NCBI GenBank assembly: GCA_963827805.1
Contig: CAWHCC010000007.1
Coordinates: 553,664-617,663 of the forward strand
Direction of reading: 5' to 3'
DNA length: 64,000 bases
Origin: an uncultured Chloroflexia bacterium
Lineage (GTDB): Bacteria > Chloroflexota > Anaerolineae > Anaerolineales > UBA11858
How positions within the stretch are numbered: the stretch's first letter is position 1; each line of letters starts with the position of its first letter. Below, one piece after another: positions 1 through 64,000 of the stretch. The notes under the pieces were generated by a model. That model saw only the letters and a list, made by a program, of their open reading frames with translations, was not told where the DNA came from and did not search any database. A program made the translations under genes and the position numbers.

Positions 1-544
1 AGCAACATCAGAAATGCAAAGTGAGCGTTTGTATCATAATACCATCCGTGATATTGCTTACTTAGATGCACCAAGTTTGCCTCGGTTGAGCCTGCCAAAA
101 ATGGATTTCATCGAGACCACGCGTAATGCTTTGTTCGAAACTTTCAACAGCCAGTTGAATATCAGTTTTGCCGGGAACAACTGGAGCGGTTCGAACGATA
201 CCTGTGGTTTCGTGGAAAACGGCACCATGTCCATTGCCTGGGATGGCGGGATCAGCCCTTGCTGGCCGCTGATGCACACGCACACCAGCTACTTGCATGG
301 GAAGCCGCGTATCAACAAAAAGCATGTAATTGGTAATGTGAAGGACCGCGGCTTACAAGATTTGTGGCTGGACCCGGAATACATTACGTATCGAGAGAAA
401 TTGCATAATTTTTCATTTGCACCCTGTACTTTCTGTGGTGGTTGCGATCTATCAGAAACCAATGAAGAAGATTGCATCGGCAACGACGAATTCCCGGTTT
501 GCGGCGGCTGCCTGTGGGCACAGGGCATTATCCAATGTCCGTGA
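1..544 (+). CDS. radical SAM/SPASM-domain maturase, C-terminal part (5' end lies outside the window); resembles tungsten-cofactor oxidoreductase maturases
   Basis: The frame is open from nt 2, upstream of the tracked Met. C-terminal Cys clusters (APCTFCGGCD, DCIG, PVCGGCLWAQGIIQCP) fit the SPASM auxiliary Fe-S pattern. It lies directly upstream of a MoaD-like gene and beside aor. Confidence 0.6.
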   Translation, partial: ATSEMQSERLYHNTIRDIAYLDAPSLPRLSLPKMDFIETTRNALFETFNSQLNISFAGNNWSGSNDTCGFVENGTMSIAWDGGISPCWPLMHTHTSYLHGKPRINKKHVIGNVKDRGLQDLWLDPEYITYREKLHNFSFAPCTFCGGCDLSETNEEDCIGNDEFPVCGGCLWAQGIIQCP

Positions 545-559
545 TGAAGGAGTTGCGCG

Positions 560-838
560 ATGAAAGTTAATTTTTATGCCACTTTGCGGGCGATTGTCGG
601 ACAGAAAACCGTCGAGGTCGATATGGCGCCAAACACAACTGCCCTGGAACTGGTCAACTTAGTTGCCGATGAATACCCGGATTTGCGCGCTGAACTTTTG
701 GATGCAGAACAGCGCTTCCAACGCCATATGAAATTATTTATTAACGGCCGGGAAGCCGTTTATTTGCAAGATCAGTTTGAAACCATTATCCAGCCCGATG
801 ATAAGGTGGATATTTTTCCCCCGGTGGGAGGTGGATAA
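560..838 (+). CDS. moaD: MoaD/ThiS-family sulfur-carrier protein
   Basis: 92 aa. The MKVNFYATLR start and the C-terminal PPVGGG (Gly-Gly terminus) are typical of MoaD. An AGGAG Shine-Dalgarno lies upstream. Confidence 0.75.
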   Translation: MKVNFYATLRAIVGQKTVEVDMAPNTTALELVNLVADEYPDLRAELLDAEQRFQRHMKLFINGREAVYLQDQFETIIQPDDKVDIFPPVGGG

Positions 839-1095
839 TGCAGAAGATTGAACGCGAAATCCGCGGAATTCCCCTCTTTCTTTTAGTGGAATATCTGGAA
901 GAAATGGGTGGTACCGTTATTGAAGAAGGGCACGTGAAAGGCCCGGGTTGGAACGTCTGGTTGCGGCGAATTGAGCCATTTCGTATTGGTTCCCTCGAAG
1001 TTGGACAATCCCATCTGAAATTTGAAATCGAAGATCATTTAGTCGATGATTTTATGGCAGTGTTTGGTCAGAAAACGCTCAGGGCAGGTGGCTAA
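838..1095 (+). CDS. small conserved hypothetical protein ending in Gly-Gly, coupled to moaD
   Basis: 85 aa. Its ATG overlaps the moaD stop (TAATG) and the C-terminus is RAGG. I recognise no family. Confidence 0.5.
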   Translation: MQKIEREIRGIPLFLLVEYLEEMGGTVIEEGHVKGPGWNVWLRRIEPFRIGSLEVGQSHLKFEIEDHLVDDFMAVFGQKTLRAGG

Positions 1096-1111
1096 ATCCT
1101 TTCCATTAGAG

Positions 1112-4338: not shown

Positions 4339-5775
4339 ATGAAGAAACTACTCATCACCCTGGCATTGATTTTGTTTGTGTTGTTTTCGGCTAGCTGTTC
4401 AACGGCTGAAGAAGCAGCGTCTACCGAACCCACGGTAGAGGTAGAGGCCCCCAGTAGCGATACAGTTTTAGAGATCATTGGTTTGGATGAGAGCATATCT
4501 CTGTCTATGTCCGACTTGCAAAACCTGGCCGTCACCGAAGGTTGGGGCGGCACCAAAAGCAGTGCGGGCGTGATCTCTCCGCCGCAGCAAACGAAAGGTG
4601 TCACCATCCTCGATCTGGCTGAACTGGTTGGTGGTCTGGAACCGGGGATGGGCGTCAATGTGGTTGCCAAAGACGGTTATGGGATGACCATGTCGTATGA
4701 ACAGATTGCTGAAGGGGATTACATTACATACGATCCCGGTACAGGGAATGAAAATTCGGTTGACAGTTTCCTGCAAACCATTGTGGCCTTCGAGCGTGAT
4801 GGTGAACCGATCCCTGATGACGAAGATGGCCCCCTGCGCCTGTTCATCGTCAGCGAGAAAAATGACAACGTGGTCGACGGGCACTGGACCGTTAAATGGG
4901 TCACAGAGATCAGGCTTAAGCCGATGTCTGAAGAGTGGTCGCTGTACCTGGAGGGCGCGCTGACCGAGGAGATGGACCGCAACTCTTTTGAGTCCTGTTC
5001 TGCTCCGGGCTGCCATCAGGCGGTCTGGACGGATGCCGACGGCAACGAGTGGACCGGCGTGCCGCTCTATTATCTGGCGGGCCGGATGGACGGCGGCAAC
5101 CAGCACGAAGACCGGGCCTACGATGACGATTTTGCCAAAGCTGGTTATATTTTGCAGCTTTTCGCCGCGGATGGTTACAACGTCGGCATCGAAAGTGAGC
5201 GCACGATTTTCAACCGCGATTTGTTTGTCGCCTGGATGGTCAACGGCGAGCCTTTGGATGAGAAACACTTCCCCCTGCGGCTGGTGGGTGCGGGCCTGGA
5301 AACCAGCGAAATGATCGGGCAGTTAGCCCAGATCATCATCCAGCCGAATGCAGGGGTGGCGATGCCCTCGGAGGCCCCCGCGGATGCGGCGGCAGAACCC
5401 GTTGAATTGATTTTGCCCGAAGGCGCGGCGGTCATGCTCTTCGGCAAAGTGATGAACCGGCTGACCCTCGGGATGGAAAACCTCCAGGCCATGAATGTGG
5501 TTGAACTGGAAGCCGAACATCCCAAGCAGGGGATGCAGACTTATCAGGGAATCCGCCTGAACGACCTGCTCAATTTGGCGGGTGCGGATGCTGCTGCCGC
5601 CACGCTGGTGATCACAGCCAGTGATGGCTATGCTGCGGAGGCCAGTTTAGCTGAAATCCGGGATTGTGAGGGTTGCCTGCTGGCCTTCGCCGAAGATGAC
5701 ACCCTCAGCATGGTCATGCCAGGGTTGCAGAGCAACTTCTGGGTCAAGGAAGTCAACTTCCTGGAAGTGAAATAA
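4339..5775 (+). CDS. lipoprotein made of three tandem domains resembling the molybdopterin-oxidoreductase substrate/cofactor domain fold (function unknown)
   Basis: Signal peptide with lipobox (LFSASC) and an AGGAG Shine-Dalgarno. Three roughly 130-150 aa modules are present. The last module is clearly homologous to the 7981-8415 protein. Confidence 0.7.
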   Translation: MKKLLITLALILFVLFSASCSTAEEAASTEPTVEVEAPSSDTVLEIIGLDESISLSMSDLQNLAVTEGWGGTKSSAGVISPPQQTKGVTILDLAELVGGLEPGMGVNVVAKDGYGMTMSYEQIAEGDYITYDPGTGNENSVDSFLQTIVAFERDGEPIPDDEDGPLRLFIVSEKNDNVVDGHWTVKWVTEIRLKPMSEEWSLYLEGALTEEMDRNSFESCSAPGCHQAVWTDADGNEWTGVPLYYLAGRMDGGNQHEDRAYDDDFAKAGYILQLFAADGYNVGIESERTIFNRDLFVAWMVNGEPLDEKHFPLRLVGAGLETSEMIGQLAQIIIQPNAGVAMPSEAPADAAAEPVELILPEGAAVMLFGKVMNRLTLGMENLQAMNVVELEAEHPKQGMQTYQGIRLNDLLNLAGADAAAATLVITASDGYAAEASLAEIRDCEGCLLAFAEDDTLSMVMPGLQSNFWVKEVNFLEVK

Positions 5776-5843
5776 TTTTTGAACACGAATGCCACGGACT
5801 GCACAGATTCGTGCGGATTATTGTTTTTCACTACAAAGGCACA

Positions 5844-6939
5844 ATGAAACATAAAGCCACAACAAAAAACAAAAAACTTAGTGGAACTTTGTGCCTTTGT
5901 GTCTTTGTGGTGCTGTTGAGTTTTGTGCTGTCTGCTTGCCGCTCGGATCCAAAAACCCCACTGACCGTGTTCATCGCCGGCAGCTTGATGGTTCCTTTCG
6001 ATGAGTTGGAGCAGGCCTATGAAGAGCTGCATCCCGAAATCGATGTGCGCGTCGAGGCCCACGGTAGCATCCAGGTTATCCGCCATGTGACCGAAATCCA
6101 TGACCGGATCGATGTGGTCGTGCCCGCGGATTATGCGCTGATCCCGCTGTTGATGTACGAAAACCCCGTTCCCAAAAGCGGCGAGCCTTACGCCGATTGG
6201 TATATCAAATTTGCCAGCAACCGTGTGGTGTTGGCCTACCAACCGGGGAGCCTCGCCGCGGATGAAGTGAACGCCGAAAACTGGTTCGACGTGATCGCCC
6301 GCCCGGAGGTCAAGTTTGGCCTTTCTGATCCGCGCATGGATGCTGCGGGTTACCGCTCCCTGATGATTGTGCAGTTAGCCGAAAATTTCTACAACGACCC
6401 CACCATTTTCGAGCGCATTTACCTGGGCCGCTTCAAAGAGCCGCTCGCGCGTCGAAAAATCGGGTGACCGGCAAATGATCCGCGTCCCAGAATTGCTGGA
6501 AACTGTCCCGGACTCGAATATCGTGCTGCGCGGCGGCAGTGTGGCCTTACTGGCCTTGCTTAAATCCGGCGATATCGACTACGCCTTCGAGTACGCGAGC
6601 GTGGCCCAGCAGCACGGCCTCCGCTATGTGGAACTGCCGCCCGAACTCAACCTGGGTGATCCAACTCACGCCACCGGTTATGCCCGCGTGCAGGTGCGCC
6701 TAGATTTTCAGCGATTTTCCTCGGTCAAGCCGGAATTCAATGGTGAGGTCATTGGCTATGGCGTCACCATCCCCTCGAACGCGCCCAACCCGGATGAAGC
6801 CCAGAAATTTGTAGAATTCTTACTCGGTTCCGAAGGTGCTGCCATTATGGAAGCGAACAGCCATCCCGAGTTTGACACGCCCCAGGTGGATAACTGCGCC
6901 GCTGTGCCGGAAAATTTGAAACACTTTTGTGATGATTGA
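5844..6939 (+). pseudogene. wtpA: tungstate/molybdate ABC transporter substrate-binding lipoprotein WtpA, interrupted by a +1 frameshift
   Basis: The two tracked ORFs (5811-6467 and 6475-6939) are the two halves of one WtpA-like protein (ADWYIKFASNRVVLAY, GYRSLMIVQLAE..YNDPTIF, then SGDIDYAFEYASVAQQHG). Deleting one A from the A5 run at 6455-6459 restores a single frame. Lipobox LSAC. Confidence 0.75.
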
Positions 6940-6943
6940 CCCT

Positions 6944-6987
6944 GTAGGGAGCGCGTTCCTGTCAGGAACGCGCTCCCTACATTTTTA
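6944..6987 (+). terminator. strong hairpin plus T5 between wtpA and wtpB (intra-operon attenuator)
   Basis: A perfect stem of about 17 bp (GTAGGGAGCGCGTTCCT / AGGAACGCGCTCCCTAC) is followed by TTTTT. It ends 8 nt before the wtpB ATG. Confidence 0.6.
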
Positions 6988-6994
6988 GATTGAT

Positions 6995-7804
6995 ATGCCC
7001 GCCCCGATAACACTCCGCTCCAAAAAGATCGACTGGTTCGTGATCAGTTTTACCCTGATCGGCGGTGCTTTGCTGCTCTTTGTCTTTCTGCCGGTGCTGA
7101 CGACTCTCCTCGGGACGGGGATTACGCTCCTCGGGGAAACCCTCCGCGATCCCGCAGTCTGGTCCGCGTTGTGGCTGACGTTTTCCGCCGCGCTCTGGGC
7201 TACGATCCTGGCTTTCCTCAGCGGGATCCCGTTGGCTTACCTGCTGGCGCGTTACGAATTCCGAGGCAAGCCCTGGATCGAAGGGCTGATTAACCTGCCC
7301 ATCGTGATTCCGCACACTGCCGCGGGGATCGCGCTGCTGATGGTCTTCGGGCGGCAGACAATTTTGGGCCAGTTCTTCGCCCGTTTTGGGATCAGTTTCG
7401 TGGATCAACTACCCGGTATTGTCGTCGGGATGCTGTTCGTCAGCCTGCCATTTTTGGTCAATGGTGCCCGCGAGGCTTTCGCGCTGGTCGATCCTGAACT
7501 GGAGCGCGTAGCCCTTTCGGATGGGGCATCCCGCTGGCAGGCTTTTTTCCTGGTCACGCTGCCATTGGCCTGGCGCGGCGTGATGGCCGGGGCTTTGATG
7601 ATGTGGGGCCGCGGTATCAGTGAGTTTGGTGCAGTGGTAATTCTGGCCTACCATCCCAAAACCATGCCGGTGCTGGTCTACGAGCGCTTTTACAGCTTCG
7701 GGTTATCCGCCGCCCAACCGGTGGCCGTCATCCTGATTTTGGCAGCCCTGCTCGTTTTCGTGCTGGTGCAAATTTTATCCCGCGTCCGGGGTAAGCCGCT
7801 TTGA
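6995..7804 (+). CDS. wtpB: ABC transporter permease (WtpB/ModB type)
   Basis: 269 aa and polytopic. It carries the ABC permease EAA-like loop (LSDGASRWQAFFLVTLPLA) and follows wtpA. Confidence 0.8.
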   Translation: MPAPITLRSKKIDWFVISFTLIGGALLLFVFLPVLTTLLGTGITLLGETLRDPAVWSALWLTFSAALWATILAFLSGIPLAYLLARYEFRGKPWIEGLINLPIVIPHTAAGIALLMVFGRQTILGQFFARFGISFVDQLPGIVVGMLFVSLPFLVNGAREAFALVDPELERVALSDGASRWQAFFLVTLPLAWRGVMAGALMMWGRGISEFGAVVILAYHPKTMPVLVYERFYSFGLSAAQPVAVILILAALLVFVLVQILSRVRGKPL

Positions 7805-7980
7805 AATGGAAATTCAATTTCGCGCAGCCTGTGGTCGTCAAGCGCAGGTTAGACAAAAACTGGGCTTACGCAGAGACGCCTTCTTTTTTTCCACACAATT
7901 TCTCAAAGAGCCAGAAAAACTTTAAAAGTGAACGTTCCGTGGGAATGATTAAAAACCATTTTTCAAAAGGAGAAAATTTC

Positions 7981-8415
7981 ATGAAATCCCTCAAAACGCT
8001 ATGCATCGTACTGATTGTCTCGGCTTTGCTGCTGGCTGCCTGTTCAACAGGCGGCGGTGGCGAAGTGGCCCTAAAAGTGACCGGCAGTGTGGCCAACGAG
8101 CAAGCCTGGACGGAAGCCCAGGTTAAAGCCATGGACACGCTGGAAGTCGAGTCCACCAACAAAGATGGCGAAACCAAAAGTTATACCGGTGTGCTGATCA
8201 CGGACCTGCTGGCTGAGGCGCAGCCGAATGCAGACGCTGCGACAGTAGTTTTTGTGGCCGATGACGGCTACACCGCCGAAATCACTCTGGAAGAACTGAA
8301 TGCCTGCGCTGACTGTATTGTCTCCTTCCGCGACCAGGACGGGTTCAGCACGGTCATGCCCGATTTCTCTGGCAAATTGCAAGTAAAAGGTGTGGTCGAA
8401 ATTCAGGTAAAGTGA
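7981..8415 (+). CDS. single-domain lipoprotein homologous to the C-terminal module of the 4339-5775 protein
   Basis: I used the ATG at 7981, which has AAAGGAG 8 nt upstream. Lipobox LLAAC. DDGYTAEITLEEL..CADCIVSF..MPDF aligns with SDGYAAEASLAEI..CEGCLLAF..MPGL of the larger protein. Confidence 0.75.
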   Translation: MKSLKTLCIVLIVSALLLAACSTGGGGEVALKVTGSVANEQAWTEAQVKAMDTLEVESTNKDGETKSYTGVLITDLLAEAQPNADAATVVFVADDGYTAEITLEELNACADCIVSFRDQDGFSTVMPDFSGKLQVKGVVEIQVK

Positions 8416-11371: not shown

Positions 11372-12238
11372 ATGAAGGTTAGTTTAGCTTATCAGGCAAA
11401 TGACAGTTTAGGTGAGGGTCCGGTTTGGGTGCCAGGAGAGCAGGCGCTTTACTGGGTCGATATTACGCGCCCAGCTTTGCAAAGATGGCATCCAAAGAGC
11501 GGTCAATATCAGAGTTGGTCGATGCCCACTGATATCGGTTGTTTTGCGCTTCGCCAGCAGGGTGGTGTGGTCGTCGCATTGAGAACCGGGTTCTTTTTCT
11601 TTGATTTTACCAATGGCAGGTTCACTCCCATTGGTGACCCTGAAGCAGATAAACCGTACACCCGATTCAATGATGGGAAATGTGATCGTCGTGGCCGATT
11701 TTGAGCGGGTACGATGGATGAAGATGCGCTAAATACCCGAGGAGGACTTTATAGGCTGGATTTTGATGGGAGCTACCAACCGATGAAAACGGGGGTTGGC
11801 ATATCGAATGGGTTAGGCTGGAGCCCGGATAATAGAATCATGTATTACACGGATTCTATTAAGCGAACGATTTGGGCTTATGATTTTGATCTTGAAGAAG
11901 GCACGATTTCGAATCGAAAAGTATTTGCCCAAACCCCAGAGGATTATGTTCCCGATGGGTTGACAGTCGATGCTGATGGTTTGGTTTGGAGCGCGAAATG
12001 GGATGGTTGGAAGGTCGTGCGGTACACCCCCAATGGTTCTGTTGATTTGGAAGTGCCGCTTCCCATTCAGCGACCCACCAGCTGTATGTTTGGCGGTCCA
12101 AATTTCAACCTGCTTTATATCACATCTGCAAGTACTGGATTGAGCGAATTTGAACTTCAAGAACAACCATCCGCAGGGAGTATTTTTGTGTATGAAACTG
12201 ATATTCCAGGTTTGCCAGAACCGCGTTTTGCCGGGTAA
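11372..12238 (+). pseudogene. SMP-30/gluconolactonase/LRE-family protein with an in-frame TGA
   Basis: ORFs 11372-11704 and 11714-12238 are in the same frame. The junction reads NDGKCDRRGRF-TGA-AGTMDE, and the family consensus has Trp there (RFWAGTM), so TGG became TGA. Confidence 0.75.
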
Positions 12239-40422: not shown

Positions 40423-40427
40423 TCCTG

Positions 40428-47502: not shown

Positions 47503-47518
47503 GTGCTACACTCCAACA

Positions 47519-49216: not shown

Positions 49217-49231
49217 AATCTCACTGAATGG

Positions 49232-49308
49232 ATGTATACGTGTATCCCGGTTGTGACAGTATTTCCCACTTATGGGTTTAGTGTCCCGCTGGGGTTACAC
49301 GTATACAT
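49232..49308. repeat. 13-bp perfect inverted repeat pair upstream of the primase-polymerase gene (candidate origin or operator)
   Basis: ATGTATACGTGTA (49232-44) and TACACGTATACAT (49296-308), 51 bp apart. They share the GTATAC core of the element promoter motif. Confidence 0.6.
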
Positions 49309-49320
49309 TAAAATAAATGG

Positions 49321-49641: not shown

Positions 49642-49656
49642 GGCTCTTTCCTTTCG

Positions 49657-50025
49657 TTAGAACATGCTCGTTTGTGTTGGTTTAGTTGGTGCTTCGGTTG
49701 TGTCCCATTCGGAAAGCAGCAAGCCCCGCTGCAATCCGAAACCGCGGTCAAGTTCAAAGCCTTCGCGCCAAATCTTGGCGATTGTGGCGCGGTGAATGCG
49801 GCCGTCATCCTTATTTGTGATGACTACCCAACGCGCGCCGGCCTTCTCTGCATCCTTCAGGGATTTCACATCAATGCAGATTGCCGGTGGCTCGCGAAGG
49901 TATCCGGATTTTCTGATTGATTTTCGAAATTCATCACCAACGACAATGCCAACGGGACGTTTTTTCCCCCATGCATAAATTGAAATTTTAGACGGTGGTT
50001 TTTGATGTATACTTGTACTGTACAT
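49657..50025 (-). CDS. hypothetical protein
   Basis: 122 aa ORF in the co-oriented gene array. Confidence 0.5.
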   Translation of the reverse strand: MYSTSIHQKPPSKISIYAWGKKRPVGIVVGDEFRKSIRKSGYLREPPAICIDVKSLKDAEKAGARWVVITNKDDGRIHRATIAKIWREGFELDRGFGLQRGLLLSEWDTTEAPTKPTQTSMF

Positions 50026-50084
50026 GACAACTCCTGTTTGTCGTGTTCGCCGCTCTAGCCCACCCTTCCCGGTGGGCTTTGCAG

Positions 50085-50270
50085 TTAAATGGTTGGCTGC
50101 CCTTCCTGGGCATGTTGCTTGTTCTGTTTGAATTGCAATAAGCCACGATTTTCAAGCTCTTTGCGGATGATAAAGCGTGCTTGGTCACGAAAATCCCGCA
50201 CTTCAAACTGAGCAAGACTTTGAAGTGCCTGCCGTTCTTCTGTGGTGAGTTTGACCGTCATTCTTTCCAT
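50085..50270 (-). CDS. ribbon-helix-helix (Arc/CopG-like) DNA-binding protein
   Basis: 61 aa. N-terminal beta-strand MTVKLT followed by two helices (TEERQALQSLAQ...ARFIIRKELENRG). Confidence 0.45.
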   Translation of the reverse strand: MERMTVKLTTEERQALQSLAQFEVRDFRDQARFIIRKELENRGLLQFKQNKQHAQEGQPTI

Positions 50271-50283
50271 GCTTTATCTCCAT

Positions 50284-50320
50284 AAAAAAAACTACACTCA
50301 ACTGATTGCTGAGTGTAGTT
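50284..50320 (-). terminator. intrinsic terminator (minus strand)
   Basis: AACTACACTCA / TGAGTGTAGTT stem followed on the minus strand by U8. Confidence 0.65.
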
Positions 50321-50372
50321 TATCGAATATGTTAGTGACTAAAAAGTGACTAAAAATATTGTCCGAATATTG

Positions 50373-51317
50373 TCATTTTTGCCAATCTGGGTTATCAATT
50401 CTCTTAAATTGACGTACTGGGTCAATCAAATGTCTTTCCTTAACCCCATCACGTGAAAGCCATTCATTATAAACTTCAGTGGGTTCTCGCCCTTCGTCGT
50501 AAATTTGTTTCCACGCCCAAATATCATCTGGCAAATGTGGTCTTCCTGGTTTTTTGATTTTTCGTTTCGATGTTTTTTTAGGAGGGAATTCTTCTGATTG
50601 TTCTCTGTCGTTTAGCTCCTCAAGTTCGTGTATTTGACCAGTGAGTTTTTCCATGGTGGCAATAATCATTCTGGAAGAAAGCCAAAGGTCAAACATATTA
50701 TCGATGAGTTCAAACTCAGGGTTATTTTCATTATAAAAATTTTCAATATCCTCTTCAGTTGGCTTCCCATCTAAATTTTCGTAATAAAGTCTGAGCGCTC
50801 TGGGTGACATTTGTTTTTCAATGGAAGACCTCAATTTTCTTACTTCGTTTAGTTGTTTTTCTTCATTATCTCTTCTTAATCTTAATTCATTCAACCGCTC
50901 AAGAATATTATCATTTTCAGTCTTCAGAATTTCTTTTGGTGATTTCTCTACTACCATTGATTTTGAATCGTCTTCTTTAGACAAAAATAAATCACCGCAG
51001 TTATTTTTAATTTCTAAGAGAATATTGTTAGCCATTTTACGAGACAAAAAACTAAACATGAATAGTTTTGACTGATTTTGTCCGTATGGGTATATCTCGA
51101 ATCGTAAATATTCAAAGTCAGGGTCTTCTTCCAGACATCTATATCCCACATAGTAAACACCAAGTTGTTCTTCAATACCATTTGGAAATAAATTGATAGT
51201 AACTTTTTTTTCAGGAGTGCTCGAATAAGTTTCATACGGCCAATCAAATGAAATTATTTTTCCAAGTATGGTTGCAACTGCACCTGGTGGCATATTTAAT
51301 ACAATTGCTTTTTCCAT
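50373..51317 (-). CDS. hypothetical protein with a central coiled coil and a basic C-terminal region
   Basis: Internal ATG at 51317 (MEKAIVLNM...). The N-terminal 46 aa of the tracked ORF overlap a hairpin and look non-coding. Confidence 0.5.
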   Translation of the reverse strand: MEKAIVLNMPPGAVATILGKIISFDWPYETYSSTPEKKVTINLFPNGIEEQLGVYYVGYRCLEEDPDFEYLRFEIYPYGQNQSKLFMFSFLSRKMANNILLEIKNNCGDLFLSKEDDSKSMVVEKSPKEILKTENDNILERLNELRLRRDNEEKQLNEVRKLRSSIEKQMSPRALRLYYENLDGKPTEEDIENFYNENNPEFELIDNMFDLWLSSRMIIATMEKLTGQIHELEELNDREQSEEFPPKKTSKRKIKKPGRPHLPDDIWAWKQIYDEGREPTEVYNEWLSRDGVKERHLIDPVRQFKRIDNPDWQK

Positions 51318-51567
51318 AGTCTTGCCTATGCTATAATGCAAATAACCATACTCGTTTCCCACGATTTGGTTCTTGCCCCTGGCTTCTGTCAGGGGCGTTA
51401 TTTTTTCCAGTCTAAACAGAGATATTATAGCACCCCAACCACACCCCAAACGCATCCCTGCCCCGCTCCGCTATCATCAGTAATTCACCAATCACACCCC
51501 GCCCCCCGGAATTTATCAGCCGTTTGCAATCTCATTACCTAATTGGGTGTGTTGATTTCTTTACGTT

Positions 51568-51587
51568 ATTTGCTACACTATTTGTGG
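51568..51587 (+). repeat. 20-bp direct repeat, copy 1, in the leader of a small TM ORF
   Basis: ATTTGCTACACTATTTGTGG. The same sequence occurs at 51783-51802. Confidence 0.8.
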
Positions 51588-51597
51588 AGGTGGTGAT

Positions 51598-51720
51598 ATG
51601 AAAAAATGGTGTCTGCGCCCACCAATTATTGTGTTTTTGATAATCATAATAATTTTATCTTTGCTTTATTTCGGTTTTAGTCTGTGGTTGTATTCGATTC
51701 CCAATGTATATGGAGGTTAG
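51598..51720 (+). CDS. small hydrophobic peptide (40 aa)
   Basis: GGAGG Shine-Dalgarno 7 nt upstream. One TM helix (PPIIVFLIIIIILSLLYFGF). Below the ORF-track length cutoff. Confidence 0.4.
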   Translation: MKKWCLRPPIIVFLIIIIILSLLYFGFSLWLYSIPNVYGG

Positions 51721-51782
51721 CTACGGGTTTAAATGCCCCAAAAAATTTGAACACTTACTTTCCCATTTGATTTTTGTACCTA

Positions 51783-51802
51783 ATTTGCTACACTATTTGT
51801 GG
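51783..51802 (+). repeat. 20-bp direct repeat, copy 2
   Basis: ATTTGCTACACTATTTGTGG, identical to 51568-51587. Confidence 0.8.
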
Positions 51803-51812
51803 TTGTAATGAG

Positions 51813-52022
51813 ATGTATTACCCTTTTCCTAAACTTTCTGAAATCGCTAATGAGATAAAAAGGGTTTTTCCCTTGCTATTTCATCCAAGCGCGTGGTTTG
51901 GTTGGCGAAAAATTTTAATAATATTTATTCGATTAACTGGTATTTTATGTAGTGTTTTTTGTAGTCTTATTTGCATTTTCCAAGTCGTAGTATTTTTCTT
52001 GATGGCTGTAGAAACGTTTTAA
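51813..52022 (+). CDS. small membrane protein (69 aa)
   Basis: Internal ATG of tracked ORF 51774-52022. Two hydrophobic segments. Confidence 0.4.
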   Translation: MYYPFPKLSEIANEIKRVFPLLFHPSAWFGWRKILIIFIRLTGILCSVFCSLICIFQVVVFFLMAVETF

Positions 52023-52029
52023 GTTGTAA

Positions 52030-52969
52030 CTAAAGATTCGCATTATCGACCGGCCCCGCGTGCCGGTGGGCTTGTTCAGTATCCTGGGTGGTCTGTGCCA
52101 GATAGCGCCGTAATACTTGTAAATCTGCATGTCCCATCAGCCTTTGAAGGTTGAAAATATCCATGCCTGCCCGTAAACATTCCAGCGCAAAGAAACGCCG
52201 GAATGAATGCAGGGAGGGGGTATCAACGCCGGCTTTATCCGCTCTCCTGCGAATGATTTGACGCAGCCCCCAATAGGTCAAGCGCTCCCCGTTTATCGTT
52301 ACCCACAATGCAGGGCAAGTATCATTCCTGTGCCTGAGATAGGCCCTGACAGCCCTACGAACTCTTTTTCCCAAGAAATACGGTCCGGGGCTTCTTACCT
52401 TTACCTTGTCTGATTAGAATCGCTCCTGTAAGGTCCAGGTCAATTAAGCTCATTCCAACCAGCTCCCCCGCTCTTGCGCCGGTATCCATCAGGGCTAACA
52501 AAATCGCCCTGTCACGAGTGCCTGTTAAGGTATCCCTTTCACAGGTTTTGAGCATGGCTTTGATATTGTCGAAATTTGCTGGCTCTAATGGCTCAACTCC
52601 AACTTTGGGCGCTTTCACTTTCCGAATGGGATTTTTCCAGCCTTCTGGCTCGATTTCATCTTCCCACCAATTAAGGAATGTGCGGACTGTCCGATAATGT
52701 GCGTGAATCCCACCGGGGTTGTGCCCATTCTCAGCCAGTATCATTAGAAATTTTCGCAAAGTGTTGGGGTCTATTTGGCTAATTTGGGTAATAGCTTGTG
52801 ACTCACAGAAGTCCGCAAAATGGCTCAATTTTAGGCGATAAAAACCGATGGTTCCCTGCGCTAAACCCTGGGCTTTGCGGTCAATTAGAAACGCTTCCAG
52901 CCAGGTTAGTAGGTGTGAATCCTGTGAAAAATTGGTGATAGTCCGTTGGTCTATTGTTTTGGTAGTCAT
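52030..52969 (-). pseudogene. tyrosine recombinase / phage-type integrase with a +1 frameshift
   Basis: N-terminal SAM-like domain plus catalytic TGARAGEL in ORF 52355-52969. HSFRRFFA..LMGHADLQVLRRYL is in ORF 52030-52374. Removing one T of the T5 run at 52365-69 gives ...KPRTVFLGKRVRRAVRAYL... Confidence 0.8.
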
Positions 52970-53044
52970 TTTTATCGTCTCCTATTCAACGATTTGTGAC
53001 CACCATATACGGGATTTTCCATGCAGTTACCCCCTGTATATACG

Positions 53045-53153
53045 GATAAAAAGACCCGCTAATCATCAACGGGTCTTCCTGTGGCGAGGGAGGGACTTGA
53101 ACCCTCAACCTACGGCTTATGAGTTCGGTGCTCTGCCATTGAGCTACCTCGCC
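53045..53153. repeat. 109-bp direct repeat, copy 2 (att site)
   Basis: Identical to 40391-40499. Confidence 0.9.
53082..53153 (-). tRNA. tRNA with CAU anticodon, promoter-proximal (probably expressed) copy
   Basis: Same 72-nt sequence as 40428-40499. A sigma70-type promoter lies about 35 nt upstream. Confidence 0.6.
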
Positions 53154-53526: not shown

Positions 53527-54400
53527 ATGATTTAAAAGAGAAAGAATAGCTGAAAATGTTTTTGCGTTTCAAAGTGATATATATGCAGAGGTGATGGCAG
53601 GGGTCGTCGTTGGTCCGGATTGGGCGGTGGCGATTGATACCCTGGCTTTTCCTGAAGAAACTTTAGCAATTCGGGATTTCATAGAACAAGAACTCAAAGT
53701 CCCGGTTCGTTATGTGATCAATACCCATTATCACGCAGACCACAGTTGGGGAACCTGTTTTTTCCCAGGCGCGTTAGTGATCTCTCATAAATTGTGCCGG
53801 GATCATCTTGAAACAAAAAGCATCCCTGCGTTAAAGCAAGCCAGCGGCCAGAACCCGTCTTTGCGCCAGTCGCAAATAATCCTGCCACATCTAACCTTTA
53901 GTGAGGGAACGTTGAGCCTCAGCGTAGGGAAAAAGAATTTAACATTATTACCTTTACCAGGTCATACGGATGATGGAATAGGCGTCTTCATTGCGGAAGA
54001 TCGAGTGTTATTCTCAGGTGATCTTTTCATGCCTATACCGTATATTGTCGATGGTGACATTGATCAAATGATCAACTCGTTTGAACAAGTTGGCAAAATG
54101 AGTTTGGAAAATATCGTTCAAGGCCACGGTGACGTGGTATTGCGGGGTGAAATCGAAATTGCGATTGAAGATCATCTACAATACCTCTCCACCATACGGA
54201 AACACGTCCGCCGTTCCTCCCGACGCAAATATCCTCGAGATTTATTAGAAACTTTAGATGTTGAATCCTGTGGAAAAAGTCGAGTAATCTTAGGTGGTTT
54301 GGCCGAAGAACTCCATCAACGAAATATGGTAAGCCTTTATATGCAGCTTTATGGTGAAGAGCCAGCAGCCTCTGAAATCGATGACGATGAGTTCTACTAA
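53527..54400 (+). pseudogene. MBL-fold metallo-hydrolase with a +1 frameshift right after the start codon
   Basis: HYHADHSWG (HxHxDH). The family N-terminus (KRERIAENVFAFQSDIYAEV...) is open upstream of the tracked start but has no ATG in frame. The ATG at 53527 becomes in-frame if one T of 53531-33 is removed. Confidence 0.7.
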
Positions 54401-54470: not shown

Positions 54471-55478
54471 CCTTATGCTAGTTACAAAATGAAGGGAAAT
54501 CCTCCAGAGTAAAATTGGGGTGTTCAGCAAAACAAACCCAAATCACACTGGAGGATACCCCAATGATAAACGACTTTGATGACTTTTGTACATGGATGTA
54601 TGTGATCATAGATGATCTCTGGTGAGGAATTTCACCACTTTTCAAGCGACCTGGGCCGCAACCGGACTGCAGTGACAGCGAACTACTCACTTTGGCAATT
54701 GTTGGCGAGTGTCGCGGCTGGGATGTCGAGACAGAAATGTTAAGTTACTGGCAAGAACATCGAGATATGTTTCCACAAATTCCTTCGCAAAGTCGCTTCA
54801 ATCGGCGGCGGCGCAATTTGATGTTGGCATTCAACCTGGTTCGCCGCAGCGTGCTATCGATGCTGGACCTAGCCCAAGAAACACAGGGCGTGATTGACAG
54901 TTTACCCATTCCAGTGGTGCAGTTCTATCTGGTGCCTGGGTCCACCGGAGACTGGAAAGCGCATGGAGCGACCTATGGGAAAGTGCCTTCCAGGAATGAA
55001 ACCATTTTTGGCTTCAAATTGCATCTCTTGATTACAGTGGGCGGTCTCATCCTGGATTTCGAACTGGCACCCGCCAATGCAAGCGACTTAGCAGTTGGTG
55101 TTGAGATGCTTGATGAGCACACCGACTTAGCTATTCTGGGCGACAAAGGCTACATCTCTGCTGAACAAGCAGCCCTGCTGTGGCGCAAGAACCGTTTGTG
55201 CTTGAGAACCATCCCGCGACGCAATCAGAAAAAGCAGCTGTCTGCTTACTGGAAGAAGGCCCACAATGCCCTCCGCCAGATTATTGAGACCGTCAATGGG
55301 CAGCTCTCGGAGCAATTCAACATCGAGCATAACCATGCCCACACTTTTTGGGGATTGTGTACTCGGCTTTACACCAAGCTGACCGCTCATACCCTTTGCA
55401 TTTACCTCAATCGTTTATTGGGTAAGCCAGATTTCTTGCAGATCAAGGCTCTGGCTTTCCCGAACTAGCATAAGACCC
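54471..55478 (+). mobile_element. IS982-family insertion sequence (about 1 kb)
   Basis: Terminal inverted repeats (CCTTATGCTAGTT at the left end, AACTAGCATAAG(ACCC) at the right). TTTTAGGG is repeated directly on both flanks (54463-70 and 55479-86). Single transposase ORF. Confidence 0.75.
54563..55468 (+). pseudogene. IS982-family DDE transposase with an in-frame TGA
   Basis: The ATG at 54563 encodes MINDFDDFCTWMYVIIDDLW. An in-frame TGA follows at 54623-25, then GISPLFKRPGPQPDCSDSELLTLAIVGE... Motifs: DSLPIPV, FGFKLHLL, LGDKGY. Confidence 0.7.
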
Positions 55479-55489
55479 TTTTAGGGTAA

Positions 55490-56173
55490 TTATTCAATAT
55501 TAGATGACTTTGCTGCTGGTTTGTTCTCTCGTTTTGCCCTTAATCCGATAAGGCGTTCAGTTCCATTTAATAACCGTTTGATATTTGGTCGTAGTGACCA
55601 TGCGAGCAAAATCTCGGCTAAGATACCGTAAACAACAAACTCCCAAGGTAATTTACCCATCGAAGCGAGTACAACAAATACAATTGTTGTAATTATTGGA
55701 GCACTCAGGGTGGCGACTGAAGCATACCCGATAAAGTACAAGATAAATCCAGCAATCGGTAAAATGAAAAAGATTACCGGTGGCCAAAGTGCAAATGCTC
55801 CTCCGGCACTGGGTGCCCCACCAGCCCCACCATGGAACTGCAATCTGCCATTATCATTCCGCGCAATCAAAAAAATTGAATAATTATGTCCTAAAATGGC
55901 CATAATTGGGGCAAGAACTTGGATCCAAATGATGTCCGGTATAAACCATCGTGCCAGCCAAACGGCGAAAGCGGCTTTAAGAAAATCCAACACAGCAGTA
56001 GCAATACCGGCCCATAATCCGGCAGCCCGCATTGCATTTGTTCCTCCAGTCCGGCCACTTTGAATTTTTCGAACATCTTGTCCTGTTCGTAACCTCACTA
56101 TGATCATCCCAAAAGGGACAGACCCAATAAGATAAGAAATAACCAAGATTATTATCCCGATTCCAATTTGCAT
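55490..56173 (-). CDS. plsY: glycerol-3-phosphate acyltransferase PlsY
   Basis: N-terminal LIGSVPFG, SGRTGGTN (a variant of GSGNxGATN) and ILGHNYSIF. Polytopic. Confidence 0.7.
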   Translation of the reverse strand: MQIGIGIIILVISYLIGSVPFGMIIVRLRTGQDVRKIQSGRTGGTNAMRAAGLWAGIATAVLDFLKAAFAVWLARWFIPDIIWIQVLAPIMAILGHNYSIFLIARNDNGRLQFHGGAGGAPSAGGAFALWPPVIFFILPIAGFILYFIGYASVATLSAPIITTIVFVVLASMGKLPWEFVVYGILAEILLAWSLRPNIKRLLNGTERLIGLRAKRENKPAAKSSNIE

Positions 56174-56463
56174 ATATTTGTAGCCTCCCGATGTCGAAAT
56201 AATTTTTTGATGTTTTCACAAAGCAATGAGGGTTTTTCGGTTTGTTTTTAACATTATAAAGGGTTGTATTACAACAAAACCCGGATGGAAGCCAGAAGTT
56301 TTTTATCTCTGAGTTTTCAGCTAATCACATTTGAAGCTCTCATGATTGAGCCACTCAGAATTGAGCCACTTTCCGACTTCCGGTTAATAGAACACATATT
56401 GCAAAGGTGAGTTACACAAAAACCAACTGTTTGCGAGTTATGCAGTTTTACCGTTATCGAATG

Positions 56464-57312
56464 TTATCTAAATAATAAGGCCAATAGCCAAAATAAGAAA
56501 AGAACTCCAATGGGTTCTATTAGAACATCTTTCCAAGAGGTACGCTCATCCAAATTTCTAAATAAGTTGATTAATCCGTAAGCAAGACCTAATAAACCTA
56601 ACCCAAAAGCGAGAGGTGAGACCGGAAGATAATAGGCCGCAGATGTGATTTGAGCCATGATCAGAGTGATAATTCCGCTTGTTCGCCAAGACCATTCTCC
56701 AGGTAGGTGCAGTCGAAATGTGCGTAAGCTGATCAGGGCCACAGCTAAGGAAAGTGCAGGTACTAAAAGAAATAAGCGGAGTTCAATTACTTTGAGCGTT
56801 ACGGATAATAAGAAAAATAAGGCATAGGCCACAGTTGTTAAACTGATTGAAGCTAAAGTGTAATTTGTGTCGTTAGGATCAACCACGGCAAATTCGGCCA
56901 TTAAAACTAAGATCAAAGCCCCCCCGCCAAGAAAAATCCCGACCCACCAATAAAGCCCCAACGTTTGTTGAATTAATGGCACCCCAATAACCCAGGCCGT
57001 TAAAGCTGGGATAAGTAAATGTTGGAATAGCGGTTGGCTGGGGTTGGAAGGGTGAGATCGCAGTAACCAGTCAGTGCCCGAAGCAGTAAGCCCTACCACA
57101 AATGCCAAAATAATCGTTTGTGTGTTGATTTGGATTTCAAAATAGAAACCCGGTAGTTGAGCTGAAAATTCGCGGCCTGGAATATTAATAAAGCCAGCAA
57201 ATGTGTACGCCAAAAGAATCGAAGCAGATAAAACACTAATGCGGTCCAAGTTTTGAGGAAAACGAAGTGTGGGCACGCTATAAATTTTACCCTTTCTTCT
57301 GAGCATCTGCAA
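56464..57312 (-). CDS. hypothetical polytopic membrane protein
   Basis: 282 aa with about 8 hydrophobic helices. Confidence 0.6.
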   Translation of the reverse strand: MQMLRRKGKIYSVPTLRFPQNLDRISVLSASILLAYTFAGFINIPGREFSAQLPGFYFEIQINTQTIILAFVVGLTASGTDWLLRSHPSNPSQPLFQHLLIPALTAWVIGVPLIQQTLGLYWWVGIFLGGGALILVLMAEFAVVDPNDTNYTLASISLTTVAYALFFLLSVTLKVIELRLFLLVPALSLAVALISLRTFRLHLPGEWSWRTSGIITLIMAQITSAAYYLPVSPLAFGLGLLGLAYGLINLFRNLDERTSWKDVLIEPIGVLFLFWLLALLFR

Positions 57313-57545
57313 CGCAAAATCTTATTGTGAAGAATCTCCCCGCCAAAATTTTGGTTACGAGAATGCCCTTTCACAAATGAGTTAATCAAGATGAAATTAC
57401 GAATCTTCAAAGTTCCCTTCCAACTTCATCTCTCAATACGACAATTCTATTTTACAGAAATTCAATCTTTGTGCTAGACTATAACCAATCAATCATATTT
57501 TCAGCAGATCACTCAAGAACTGGTTAAATGAGAAGGGACATAATA

Positions 57546-58746
57546 ATGCGGATTGGAATGTTGGCCGATGCTTACAAACCATATATCAGCGGGGTCACAA
57601 ATGTAATTGATCTTAGCAAACGGTTTCTGGAATCCCGGGGTCATGAAGTCTTCGTGTTTACTTTTGGAGATGATACGGTTGAAGATGATGAAATCAACGT
57701 TATCCGATCACCAGGTTTACATCTAGTTGATAGCGGTTTCTATGTCAACGTGAGATATAACCGTGCAACTCGCAATATTCTCCGCACAATGGATATTGTC
57801 AATGTCCATCACCCGTTTGTGAGTGGTCGATTAGCGCTTTGGTATTGTAAACCAAGGGGTATCCCGATTGTTTTTACAAACCACACGCGCTGATGATTTG
57901 TACGCCAAAGCCTATATTCCATTCTTGCCTGCTGGAGTAGGTGAAACTTTCTTGAAGACCTATTTCCCAGGGTTTTGCGACTCTGTGGATATGGTTGTGG
58001 CTCCATCTATTGGATTAAAAAAGGTTTTACAACGAGTTGGCGTGACCGCAGAAATTGAGGTCGTACCAAATGGCGTGGATTTTTCTCCTTTTCGGGGCGA
58101 TATCCAACCGATTGATCGAGCCGAATTTGGATTTCGGGAAGATGATGTGATTTTGATCTATGCGGGTCGACTTGGTCCCGAAAAGAATCTCCCTTTCTTG
58201 TTGCGAGCATTCAACGGTGCAGCTCAGGCCTATGAAAATATGTGTCTCTTAATTATAGGCGACGGTCCCGAGCGCGAAAACTTGCAAGACCGAGTCAGCC
58301 ATATGCCCATAACAGATCGAGTTCATTTTACAGGATTTGTCGACTATCAAAAAATCCCTAATTATTTAGCTGCGGCTGATATCTTCACAACTGCATCAGT
58401 AACCGAAGTTCATCCTCTATCTGTGATTGAAGCAATGGGAGCTGGATTGCCGGTATTGGGGATTGAATCACCTGGCGTCGCGGATACCGTCAATGATGGA
58501 GAAGATGGTTTTATCGTTCCCGAAGAAGACCTGGCAGCTTTCACTGCCAAAATGGTACGATTAGCCACAGAAGCTGATCTTCGCAAGAAGATGAGCATCC
58601 GGGCCAGGAAAACATCAGAATTATATGATTACCGACGAACAAACCAGCTTATGTTTGAGTTGTATCAGCGTGTAATTAATAACACGAAAGGCCAACGGAA
58701 GAGCATTAGGACCCGTTGGATTTGGTTTTGGGATCAGTTGCGCTGA
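57546..58746 (+). pseudogene. GT4-family glycosyltransferase with a +1 frameshift
   Basis: ORF 57528-57893 ends at IVFTNHTR-stop and ORF 57868-58746 continues with (A)DDLYAKAYIP. The extra base is within 57886-57893. C-terminal motif EVHPLSVIEAMGAGLPV. Confidence 0.75.
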
Positions 58747-61865: not shown

Positions 61866-61883
61866 AAAATGAACAGATAGTGA

Positions 61884-61921
61884 AAGTGTCCGCTGACTTA
61901 TTGAACCGGCGGACACTTTTT
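61884..61921 (+). terminator. intrinsic terminator
   Basis: AAGTGTCCGC / GCGGACACTT stem followed by T5. Confidence 0.7.
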
Positions 61922-62084
61922 GGTTAGGTTAAATTTTTCTGTACAATTTCAAAGCTGTGACACAAAAACACCTCATCAGAGAATTTTATGAATTTCAAAA
62001 TTGAATTTAGCAACCAAGACAAATTTATTGTGTTGTATTGAATGGGATTTTCTCATTCATTAACCGCATAAAATAGGAGTCATC

Positions 62085-64000
62085 ATGCTCAAGAAAATAG
62101 GCCGCTTTTTGCTCATCTTGACCTTAGTTCTGATTGTGGTTGGTGCAATTGCCGCGCTGACCGCACCTGCGATCACTCGTTACGTTGCGAAAAAATCCTT
62201 CCCCCAAATCGACGGTGAAATCCGACTTTCCGGGCTGGATGGCCCCGTGGATATCTATCGTGATTCCTTTGGTGTGCCCCACATCTATGCCACGAGCGAA
62301 CATGATCTGGTTTTTGCGCAGGGATACGTTCATGCTCAAGATCGTTTTTGGCAAATGGATTTTTGGCGGCATCAAGGATCAGGCCGCCTTTCTGAGTTGT
62401 TGGGAGAAAACACAGTTAGCACCGATAAATTTCTGCGGACGTTAGGATGGGAGCGTATTGCCGAGCAAGAGTTCGCCCGGATGGATCCTTCGATGCTGAT
62501 GATTCTTGAGGCTTATGCCGATGGAGTTAATGCCTACTTGGATGATCATCAGGCCTCTGCCCTCAGCTTGGAATATGCTTTTTTGCCACTGATCAACGCG
62601 GATTATGAACCTCGACCGTGGACTCCGATCAATACACTCACCTGGGCAAAAGCAATGGCATGGGAGTTGGGCAGCAGCAAACTCGATAATGAAATTACTT
62701 ATGCGAAACTGCTTCACGATCTTCCCCAAGAAAAGATTATTTTTCTTCATCCACCTTATCCATCAGATCATCCGGTGATCGTTACCAACCCCCATCTGAC
62801 CACTGATATTGGGGCGATACCACCAATTCAGCCTGCCTTGATGAGCGCGGTTTATCCTGCCCTACGGGAGGCCAGCCAACGAGTTACAGCGGCTGGAGCG
62901 TATCGTTCTGATGAAATCGGCTCCAACAATTGGGTTATTTCCGGAAGTCTAACTGAAAGCGGGTTACCTTTACTCGCCAACGATATGCATCTGGCTGCCC
63001 AAATGCCTTCGATCTGGTATGAGATTGGCCTGCATTGTGCTCCTGTGAATGCAGGATGTGGATTAGAGGTTACCGGTTTTTCTTTTGCTGGTACACCCGG
63101 AGTCATCGTAGGGCATAATGCTAATTTAGCCTGGGGATTTACGAACGTAGGACCCGATGTTGTTGATATTTATATCGAAAAAATTAACCCAAACAACCCC
63201 AATCAATATGAATTTAAAGGTGAATGGGTTGATATGGAAATAATCACCGAGGTCATTGAAGTTGCCGGTGCTGATCCAGTCGAACAAACTGTTCGCCTCA
63301 CTCGTCATGGACCATTGATCACCGAGGTGTACGGATTAGATGACTTTCACGAAATCACCGGAATTGATCTGCCGGAAAATTATGCCCTCGCCCTGCGTTG
63401 GACCGCGCTGGAACCGGCATGTGTGATGTGTGCTTTATGGGGTTTTGACACCGCTGAAAATTGGGATGAATTCCGAGCCGCGGCAGCTCAGTTTGCTGCT
63501 CCAGCCCAAAATATCGTTTACGCCGACAAACAGGGAAATATCGGTTATCAAACACCGGGTAATATCCCGATTCGAGCCGAGGGTCATAATGGACAGTACC
63601 CCGTGCCTGGCTGGACAGGCGAGTATGAATGGCAGCGCTATATTCCTTTTGAGGAACTGCCTTATGCCCATAATCCCGCAGAGGGATATATCGCCACGGC
63701 CAACAATGCTGTGGTCGGGACTGAGTATCCCTATATGATTTCCCAACAATTTGCCTACGGCTTCCGCGCTCGACGCATCGTCGATTTGATCGAGACTGCT
63801 CCTGGCCCGATTGATGCCGCATATATTCAGCAAATTCATGGTGATAATATGGATTTGCTGGCTGTCGAAATGGTGCCGATCTTGTTGGCAACTCCGCTCA
63901 ATGATGCCAAGCTTGCCGAAATTCGAGATTTGCTTCAGGGTTGGGATTACCAAATGCATATGGATTCTGCCCCCGCGGCTTTGTATGCTGCTTTTTGGAA
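62085..64000 (+). CDS. penicillin acylase-family (Ntn hydrolase S45) protein, 3'-truncated by the window end
   Basis: Absent from the ORF track because it has no stop in the window. I translated it codon by codon from the ATG at 62085 (AGGAG upstream) to nt 64000 and found no stop. N-terminal TM/signal sequence, FGVPHIYA, AQDRFWQMD, and the nucleophile motif GSNNWV at about 62919. Confidence 0.85.
   Translation, partial: MLKKIGRFLLILTLVLIVVGAIAALTAPAITRYVAKKSFPQIDGEIRLSGLDGPVDIYRDSFGVPHIYATSEHDLVFAQGYVHAQDRFWQMDFWRHQGSGRLSELLGENTVSTDKFLRTLGWERIAEQEFARMDPSMLMILEAYADGVNAYLDDHQASALSLEYAFLPLINADYEPRPWTPINTLTWAKAMAWELGSSKLDNEITYAKLLHDLPQEKIIFLHPPYPSDHPVIVTNPHLTTDIGAIPPIQPALMSAVYPALREASQRVTAAGAYRSDEIGSNNWVISGSLTESGLPLLANDMHLAAQMPSIWYEIGLHCAPVNAGCGLEVTGFSFAGTPGVIVGHNANLAWGFTNVGPDVVDIYIEKINPNNPNQYEFKGEWVDMEIITEVIEVAGADPVEQTVRLTRHGPLITEVYGLDDFHEITGIDLPENYALALRWTALEPACVMCALWGFDTAENWDEFRAAAAQFAAPAQNIVYADKQGNIGYQTPGNIPIRAEGHNGQYPVPGWTGEYEWQRYIPFEELPYAHNPAEGYIATANNAVVGTEYPYMISQQFAYGFRARRIVDLIETAPGPIDAAYIQQIHGDNMDLLAVEMVPILLATPLNDAKLAEIRDLLQGWDYQMHMDSAPAALYAAFW

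Follow-up and report, generated by a model that had tools for sequence, protein, structure and literature searches.

The window analysed here is a 64,000-nt stretch of the genome of an uncultured Anaerolineales bacterium (Chloroflexota; assembly GCA_963827805.1, contig CAWHCC010000007.1, positions 553,664–617,663) in which many genes are interrupted by single-base frameshifts and in-frame stop codons, both in the chromosome and in an integrative element at a tRNA gene. Orthologues and family models bore out the high density of broken genes claimed in a preliminary description of the stretch, with at least eight chromosomal genes split by one additional base and seven in-frame stops. Lesions are denser within the element, as had also been claimed, with 11 in 12.76 kb against 12 in the 51.2 kb elsewhere (0.86 vs 0.23 per kb). 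No single cause fits all of these lesions. The reading favoured here, with about even confidence, combines ordinary decay of dispensable DNA with inserted single bases that are probably consensus errors or strain-private variants. Assembly error, pseudogene formation and a mutator history had each been proposed, and it is the combination of the first two that is supported.

Exact protein look-ups placed the window proteins on a single contig of 1,346,589 bases in NCBI and ENA. Among species representatives, the nearest are ~76% identical to the window in the amino-acid sequence of the xanthine-dehydrogenase-like protein, and the relatives compared are 75–82% identical to the window at the nucleotide level. 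Sequence for comparison came from a 1.14-Mb contig of ENA assembly ERZ25039603 (L083), from ENA assembly ERZ25039514 (L084, L088/L092 and L089), from Logan assemblies of SRR runs (L085–L087 and L093, with L085 and L087 presumably built from short reads) and from JGI (L090/L091). At each confirmed frameshift, removal of one base yields a single protein matching one family model or orthologue across the junction. For wtpA and for the kinase, SMP-30, TetR, GT4, integrase, EamA and pullulanase genes, one Pfam or NCBIfam model spans the junction once the frame is repaired or the stop read through. DNA alignments showed the orthologous sequence to be one base shorter than the window at the kinase, pullulanase, giant-protein, EamA and integrase shifts. 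The frameshifts first described in wtpA, the giant protein, pullulanase, kinase, EamA, MBL and GT4 genes were all upheld by models or orthologues. The proposed comparison with orthologues did reveal intact frames in relatives. The original list of lesions also proved incomplete, since those at 34642, ~45913, ~46362 and 27023–27187 had been missed.

The gene for the tungstate-binding protein WtpA (5811–6939, forward strand) is present as open reading frames (ORFs) of 218 and 154 residues, and its +1 shift lies somewhere in 6379–6465, where both frames are open; the A5 run at 6455–6459 falls inside this interval. Deletion of one A allows TIGR03730 to match in one stretch (residues 40–326 to profile positions 3–275 of 275), together with Pfam SBP_bac_11 at residues 51–348. 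No wtpA orthologue was found, the relatives being without the higher-GC inserted cluster. A secreted PD40/cohesin giant protein of ~1228 residues (13689–17376, reverse strand) is split into 350 and 876 residues by a +1 shift at 16342–16347, outside any homopolymer, and an intact 1230-residue orthologue (P0039, L087) aligns to it in two frames that meet at 16342–16346. Pullulanase (19938–23550, reverse strand) is divided into 800 and 411 residues by an additional base in the A4 run at 21150–21153. When repaired, it matches TIGR02103 in one stretch (266–1134), its orthologue in L083 is a single 1206-residue product, and the segment across the junction is matched by more than 100 homologues of 687–1433 residues, mostly longer than 1000. 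The Ser/Thr kinase gene (29506–30553, forward strand) encodes fragments of 241 and 95 residues owing to a +1 shift at the TTT run 30227–30229. The Pkinase model (18–266) spans this junction and seven orthologues of 348–349 residues are intact.

Two further frameshifts lie in a module of three adjacent genes. The gene for a 157-residue membrane protein (34235–34708, forward strand) contains an extra A at 34640–34642, a lesion absent from the original list, which places the C-terminus out of frame. The EamA transporter gene (35366–36310, forward strand) carries a +1 shift at ~36196–36201 in addition to a TAA at 36240–36242. Pfam EamA (162–305) spans both EamA lesions, relatives of 311–319 residues are intact, and the orthologues read EPSMTAVLAY...TLAQILGS around the lesions. 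In a metallo-beta-lactamase-fold gene (MBL; 53527–54400, forward strand) the shift falls at codon 3, in ATGATTTAAAAG at 53531–53537. The orthologue in L089 begins MIQRERIADNVFAFQ and the repaired window reads MIKRERIAENVFAFQ, with the orthologous N-terminus MIQRERIADNVF supporting a shift at 53531–37; Lactamase_B matches the repaired product at 24–200. Finally, the GT4 glycosyltransferase gene (57546–58746, forward strand) is split into 115 and 292 residues by an extra G at 57886–57893, where there is no homopolymer. The window reads CGCT[G]ATGAT at this site, the orthologue encodes RYDLY, with orthologue P0073 reading FTNHTRYDLYAKAY, and Glyco_transf_4 (21–184) spans the junction.

In all eight chromosomal genes the frame is restored by removing one base. 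The seven shifts for which an orthologue or independent copy exists are each +1 against it, a result with a probability of 0.004 under equal odds of insertion and deletion. The insertions had been placed mostly in A/T homopolymers, which proved overstated: the chromosomal insertions occur in runs of 0–5 bases and never in longer ones, and the insertions in the giant-protein, EamA and GT4 genes are outside runs and are not copies of the adjacent base. The window contains 102 homopolymer runs of at least six bases, none of which holds a confirmed chromosomal frameshift. Slippage favours long runs and the insertions avoid these; they are therefore unlike slippage mutations.

All seven in-frame stops listed at the outset were found to be in frame. 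The SMP-30/gluconolactonase gene (11372–12238, forward strand) contains a TGA at 11702–11704 that is spanned by Pfam SGL (13–253). In a PDB alignment the codon corresponds to an aromatic position, occupied by Phe in regucalcin (GRY-F-AGTM), and Trp is plausible there. The TetR regulator gene (34709–35281, forward strand) is interrupted by TAG at 35096 and TGA at 35156, both within the TetR_C_24 match (73–156). Trp is conserved at 35156 in three orthologues, and Gln is conserved at the EamA codon 36240. The orthologues have Ile or Leu at 35096, where Gln is unsupported and a TTG to TAG transversion is as parsimonious as CAG to TAG. An IS982-family transposase gene (54563–55468, forward strand) has a TGA at 54623–54625. 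The read-through product matches NF033520 from residues 37 to 279 (profile positions 1–242 of 243), and the stop lies upstream of this profile, in frame with the ATG-initiated N-terminus, so that no ancestral residue can be assigned to it. A Logan contig that covers the neighbouring DNA reaches just 18 bases into the end of the IS982 copy (window 55450), which would be expected of an insertion sequence present several times in the genome.

The nonsense codons had been attributed to a uniform C:G-to-T:A signature. Such ancestry is supported at 35156 (Trp), 36240 (Gln) and 46986 (CAA) and is plausible at 11702 (Trp), but it is unsupported at 35096 and is contradicted by a further stop near 45913 in the element, where TAC has become TAA. 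Furthermore, an A:T-to-G:C change never creates a stop, which leaves C:G to T:A as the one route by which a transition can do so. The uniformity is largely forced by the genetic code and the signature therefore says little. Inspection of the seven stop contexts by eye revealed no common methylation-type motif; CT precedes the CAA/CAG codon at three stops, which was not considered significant. An alternative genetic code was rejected, as the terminators of 30 window genes comprise 11 TGA, 16 TAA and 3 TAG. For the TGA-ended genes GS, p773, Usp and miaA, orthologue alignments reach to within a few residues of the C-terminus.

A start codon has also been lost. The 829-residue protein of L083 aligns by tblastn from window position 27023, and the stretch corresponding to its N-terminal 56 codons (27023–27187, forward strand) is open in frame and contains no ATG, GTG or TTG, so that gene calling begins at an internal Met and gives a product of 773 residues. 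The ATG found in two relatives is ATC or ATA in the window. The position of the lost start lies a few bases past a conserved TATAAT box, and this proximity suggests a leaderless transcript.

The integrative element is bounded by two 109-bp direct repeats (40391–40499 and 53045–53153, both on the reverse strand) that are identical at 109 of 109 positions. The left repeat comprises a tRNA-like gene with a CAT anticodon (40428–40499) and a hairpin, and the right repeat contains the second tRNA copy (53082–53153). Rfam matches the tRNA in both repeats at full length with 62.6 bits and a CAT anticodon; ARAGORN made no tRNA call at either repeat copy and the minimum-energy fold has no anticodon stem. 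Relative to the tRNA in the relative's sequence (L089 9816–9887), a G-to-A change in both copies of the window abolishes one pair of an anticodon stem that has only three. The element itself occupies 40500–53044, with 12,545 bp between the repeats and a repeat period of 12,654 bp, and its cargo consists of a tyrosine integrase at the right end, a Prim-Pol protein, a PD40 protein and many short ORFs. No relative of the Prim-Pol protein was matched in IMG/VR. The ends of the element are now defined and its decay is supported.

A second copy of the element was found in ENA contig_57536 (L088/L092; 12,566 bases), which matches window 40497–53046 only and ends at the repeat borders. Overall identity between the copies is 93.7%, rising to ~98–100% at the ends and ranging from 75 to 95% in the middle. 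The copies are separated by 61 indels in a MAFFT alignment with L088 (70–75 gap openings by blastn). The near-identical ends show about one indel for every four substitutions, and by our own estimate this indel share exceeds that expected from natural divergence. Genes for the Prim-Pol protein (565 residues), a 360-residue protein and a 186-residue protein are intact only in the window, and those for the integrase, ORFs of 80 and 118 residues and more of the PD40 gene are intact only in contig_57536. Contig_57536 may represent the element after its excision as a circle, or the assembler may have resolved a present/absent polymorphism, and in either case the element would have been recently mobile despite its broken genes. 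The perfect repeats together with an element-only contig elsewhere likewise suggest recent mobility and not an old relic. At the same tRNA site in a relative (L089 10001–19215), other cargo lies between two tRNA copies, namely a cold-shock protein, DUF4277, HTH_36 and an MBL/LTD protein, with an adjoining integrase 93.6% identical to that of the window. A strictly empty site was not found.

The broken genes of the element lie on the reverse strand. A small secreted protein gene (41474–41869) has a TAA at 41765–41767 between the signal peptide and the remainder, and the surrounding sequence is identical in L092. The PD40-repeat gene (42686–43981) is in three pieces of 106, 194 and 152 residues. 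The corresponding gene of contig_57536 encodes 295 and 152 residues. Relative to contig_57536 the window differs by −1 at 43597 and +2 at 43696, and the third break, near 43144, is common to both copies along with the 152-residue ORF. A gene for a ~200-residue protein (46644–47252) contains an in-frame TAA at 46986–46988. This codon is CAA in contig_57536, which has frameshifts of its own 40–60 bases away. The tyrosine integrase gene (52030–52969) is divided into 204 and 114 residues by an extra A at 52359–52360; the frameshift had been recognized correctly but ascribed to the wrong base, in a T5 run. The repaired integrase is identical at 312 of 312 residues to that of the second copy (P0054), with one substitution in the surrounding kilobase, and Phage_integrase matches it at 133–294.

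Compared with contig_57536, the stretch of short ORFs at 44000–46400 has its frame broken in several places and carries one additional stop. No Pfam match was obtained at 44–46.5 kb in any of the three frames, and because there is no protein family match the lesions at 44–46.4 kb were judged against contig_57536 alone. On this comparison the shift placed at ~45878 was retained, the window being one base longer at 45874–45878. The direction given for a shift at 45717 was reversed, since the window is one base shorter at 45713–45717, and a supposed single-base shift at 44224–44226 proved to be a two-base difference at 44240. Lesions reported at 46150 and 46325–46330 were not borne out, both copies being identical at these positions. 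The frame break relative to the intact 80-residue ORF of contig_57536 maps instead to ~46362, as a +1 change, and this and the TAC to TAA change at ~45913 were additions to the original list.

Sequence from the same population was sought by look-ups of 29 window proteins, both exact and at the level of 90% clusters, and came from Logan run ERR11523668 only, as two contigs totalling 6.7 kb at a 99.9% match (L081, window 55450–57331; L082, window 30014–34799). Across this length the two contigs differ from the window by five substitutions, two of these 2 bases apart, and one indel. The substitution level is thus 0.075%, and the window has T/A opposite C/G at only one of the five differing positions, which argues against deamination-type errors. 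As L082 has its own substitutions, two of them only 2 bases apart, it represents a consensus separate from that of the window. The kinase frameshift is real: both the TTT and the split are present in L082. At 34640–34642 the AAA of the window is AA in L082, whose product ends ...LLILAGIPWGRSLLPGF, as in three orthologues. In the same manner, the stop at 41765 and the 295/152 break of the PD40 gene are real, as they recur in contig_57536, and the 34642 insertion and the extra A of the integrase are specific to this assembly or strain. For the remaining lesion sites, same-species sequence was absent from the protein collection and the JGI contigs searched. A concatenated query centred on 11 lesion sites returned mostly pullulanase matches, and for none of these sites did the protein collection contain a copy that was both intact and nearly identical; an EamA query returned only its source protein and relatives of up to 82% identity; and exact patterns spanning the kinase and EamA lesions had no match in two scans of JGI contigs.

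The number and position of the lesions provide further evidence. Five chromosomal nonsense codons are seen where substitution errors would be expected to give at most 1.2–1.7 (P = 0.009–0.03), an expectation that treats all five differences between window and Logan sequence as window errors; in these genes a stop results from about 4% of random substitutions and from 5.3% of C:G-to-T:A changes. Five lesions also fall within 1.6 kb, across the adjacent 157-residue (one), TetR (two) and EamA (two) genes (P = 0.004). Loci of ENA assembly ERZ25039514 contain ~10 frameshifts in ~31 kb, at sites other than those of the window, in genes for a response regulator, 301- and 257-residue proteins, EamA, pullulanase, GT4, MBL and miaA. 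No frameshifts were found in L085 and L087, nor in 21 kb of L083. The related ENA contigs carry names of the form contig_N, which we take to be Flye-style, and the 1.35-Mb contig and the naming of the sister records suggest that the window comes from a data set of the Nanopore-only type. Neither ERR11523668 nor the ERZ250395xx records were found in literature text or supplements. Nanopore-only metagenome genomes below ~40x coverage keep frame-breaking indels (PMC9262707), and a large Nanopore-only soil catalogue was polished with a single Medaka round (PMC12313526).

Elsewhere in the window, three regions bear on its gene content. The segment at 4339–8415 has 54–56% GC and comprises a 478-residue lipoprotein, wtpA, wtpB and a 204-residue paralogue of the lipoprotein C-terminus. 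It is inserted between a regulator and tupABC, has no ATPase gene of its own and is absent from L090 and L091. In relatives (L083 11047–16005 and L085) the MoxR gene is flanked by DUF58 and a 167-residue gene on one side and by a 222-residue gene and DUF4129 on the other. The window retains MoxR alone (30553–32274), with no detectable remnants of the flanking genes, and this loss is not explicable by sequencing errors. At 61990–64000 on the forward strand, a long ORF that resembles a penicillin-acylase-family protein by eye leaves the right end of the window and appears intact; it was unlisted among the ORFs because it runs past that end.

In the favoured mixture of decay and insertion-type variants, the first class of lesion would come from true decay, in an environmental population of Anaerolineales, of DNA that is dispensable, with stops and frameshifts building up once a unit is no longer needed. 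The decayed units would be the 12.65-kb element, the IS982 copy, the module of membrane-protein, TetR and EamA genes, the kinase and probably the SMP-30 gene. The second class would consist of residual one-base insertions, arising either as consensus errors of a long-read metagenome at modest coverage or as very recent strain-private variants, and would account for some of the lone +1 shifts found in genes that are well preserved in other respects, the candidates being the 157-residue ORF, the integrase, the giant protein, pullulanase, GT4, MBL and wtpA. We infer both the sequencing technology and the class of each lesion that lies outside the independent sequence.

Several points weigh against this mixture. 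Independent same-population sequence amounts to 6.7 kb and covers two of the ~14 chromosomal lesions, one of which falls each way. The errors of ERZ25039514 mix −1 and +1 changes and the window shows only +1, so the two profiles do not match cleanly. A ratio of five nonsense codons to eight frameshifts is, by our own estimate, normal for pseudogenes. Lastly, a reading in which every lesion is real is self-consistent, and the lesions at 34642 and in the integrase gene could have arisen by recent mutation.

That reading, the strongest competitor and a distinct if minority possibility, holds nearly all lesions to be genuine and to reflect an unusually high load of recent pseudogenes, about one in four chromosomal genes here, brought about by relaxed selection or a mutator such as mismatch-repair deficiency. 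A mismatch-repair defect produces transitions and one-base insertions. The recurrence of the kinase frameshift, the 41765 stop and one PD40 break in independent sequence argues for it, as do an excess of nonsense codons over what consensus errors allow, the clustering of lesions in one functional module and the pseudogene-like ratio of lesion types. It would also accommodate the lost start codon at 27023–27187, the G-to-A change in both tRNA copies and the MoxR operon without the neighbouring DUF58 and DUF4129 genes kept by relatives. However, the only independent contig across 34642 is without the insertion, the integrase shows no amino-acid change besides its frameshift, and seven chromosomal genes have exactly one lesion each with no further decay. 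The insertions avoid long homopolymers and three of them are not duplications of a neighbouring base. Moreover, another species in a similar assembly has an equal density of frameshifts at other sites and short-read relatives have none.

The converse, in which nearly all lesions are artefacts of an unpolished long-read consensus with insertion-biased indel errors and C-to-T type base errors, is unlikely. The provenance and behaviour of the sister assemblies, the +1 bias without exception, the window-specific lesions at 34642 and 52360 and the published errors of low-coverage Nanopore-only genomes (PMC9262707, PMC12313526) are all in keeping with it. Against this, the kinase frameshift also occurs in a contig that was assembled separately and has single-nucleotide differences of its own, and two element lesions are common to a second assembly. 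Seven or eight nonsense codons would imply well over 100 substitution errors in 64 kb, whereas substitutions between window and Logan sequence stand at the low level given above, with the expected T/A-for-C/G direction at a single position. A cluster of five lesions in a three-gene module would also be unexpected, unless the assembly were locally poor.

Rather improbable is a special form of the all-genuine case, in which a free-living environmental Anaerolineales lineage underwent a natural hypermutator episode or a phase of strongly relaxed selection. On this reading the spectrum would be an unusual one, with single inserted bases away from long homopolymers as its only indels, alongside G:C-to-A:T changes, and the pseudogenes would still be polymorphic in the population. 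Programmed interruption, in which TGA would be read as Trp, Gly or selenocysteine or the ribosome would shift frame as in some insertion-sequence transposases, is very improbable: although three stops are TGA, one of them at a conserved Trp, one at an aromatic position that could plausibly have held Trp and one in a transposase, the remaining stops are TAA and TAG, no slippery motif is common to the frameshift sites, the orthologues are uninterrupted, and an NCBIfam model spans the IS982 transposase, which belongs to a single-ORF family, as one stretch.

As in Nanopore-only metagenome-assembled genomes, isolated single-base indels split conserved genes about once per 4–6 kb, at sites that vary between related assemblies, and short-read assemblies are without such indels. 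The documented Nanopore errors are both insertions and deletions in homopolymers, with runs of at least 10 bases still problematic in R10.4 (PMC9262707). In contrast, the chromosomal shifts of the window are all insertions in runs of 0–5 bases, one is reproduced independently, and nonsense codons are outside that error profile. Resemblance to pseudogenes and degraded integrated elements is seen in the several lesions per unit in the TetR/EamA module and the element, some of them common to two diverged element copies, and in stops derived by C:G-to-T:A changes at conserved Trp and Gln codons. Unlike the usual pseudogenes, the lesions are dense for a free-living bacterium and most of the affected chromosomal genes have one lesion and no other decay. 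The element resembles tRNA-targeting tyrosine-integrase elements in having its integrase beside a duplicated tRNA 3′ region, flanking direct repeats and different cargo in a relative. It differs from typical examples in that the repeat takes in the whole tRNA and 37 bases downstream, and in a cargo (Prim-Pol, PD40 protein and small ORFs) without IMG/VR relatives.

There is no new kind of system here, and the evidence points to ordinary decay combined with probable consensus errors. About a quarter of the chromosomal genes of the window are called as fragments, which distorts a functional or pangenome reading of the genome, and a mutational signature drawn from stop codons alone carries little information. 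Only if sequencing reads upheld nearly all of the lesions would this organism represent a pseudogene-rich, free-living lineage with an insertion-only spectrum.

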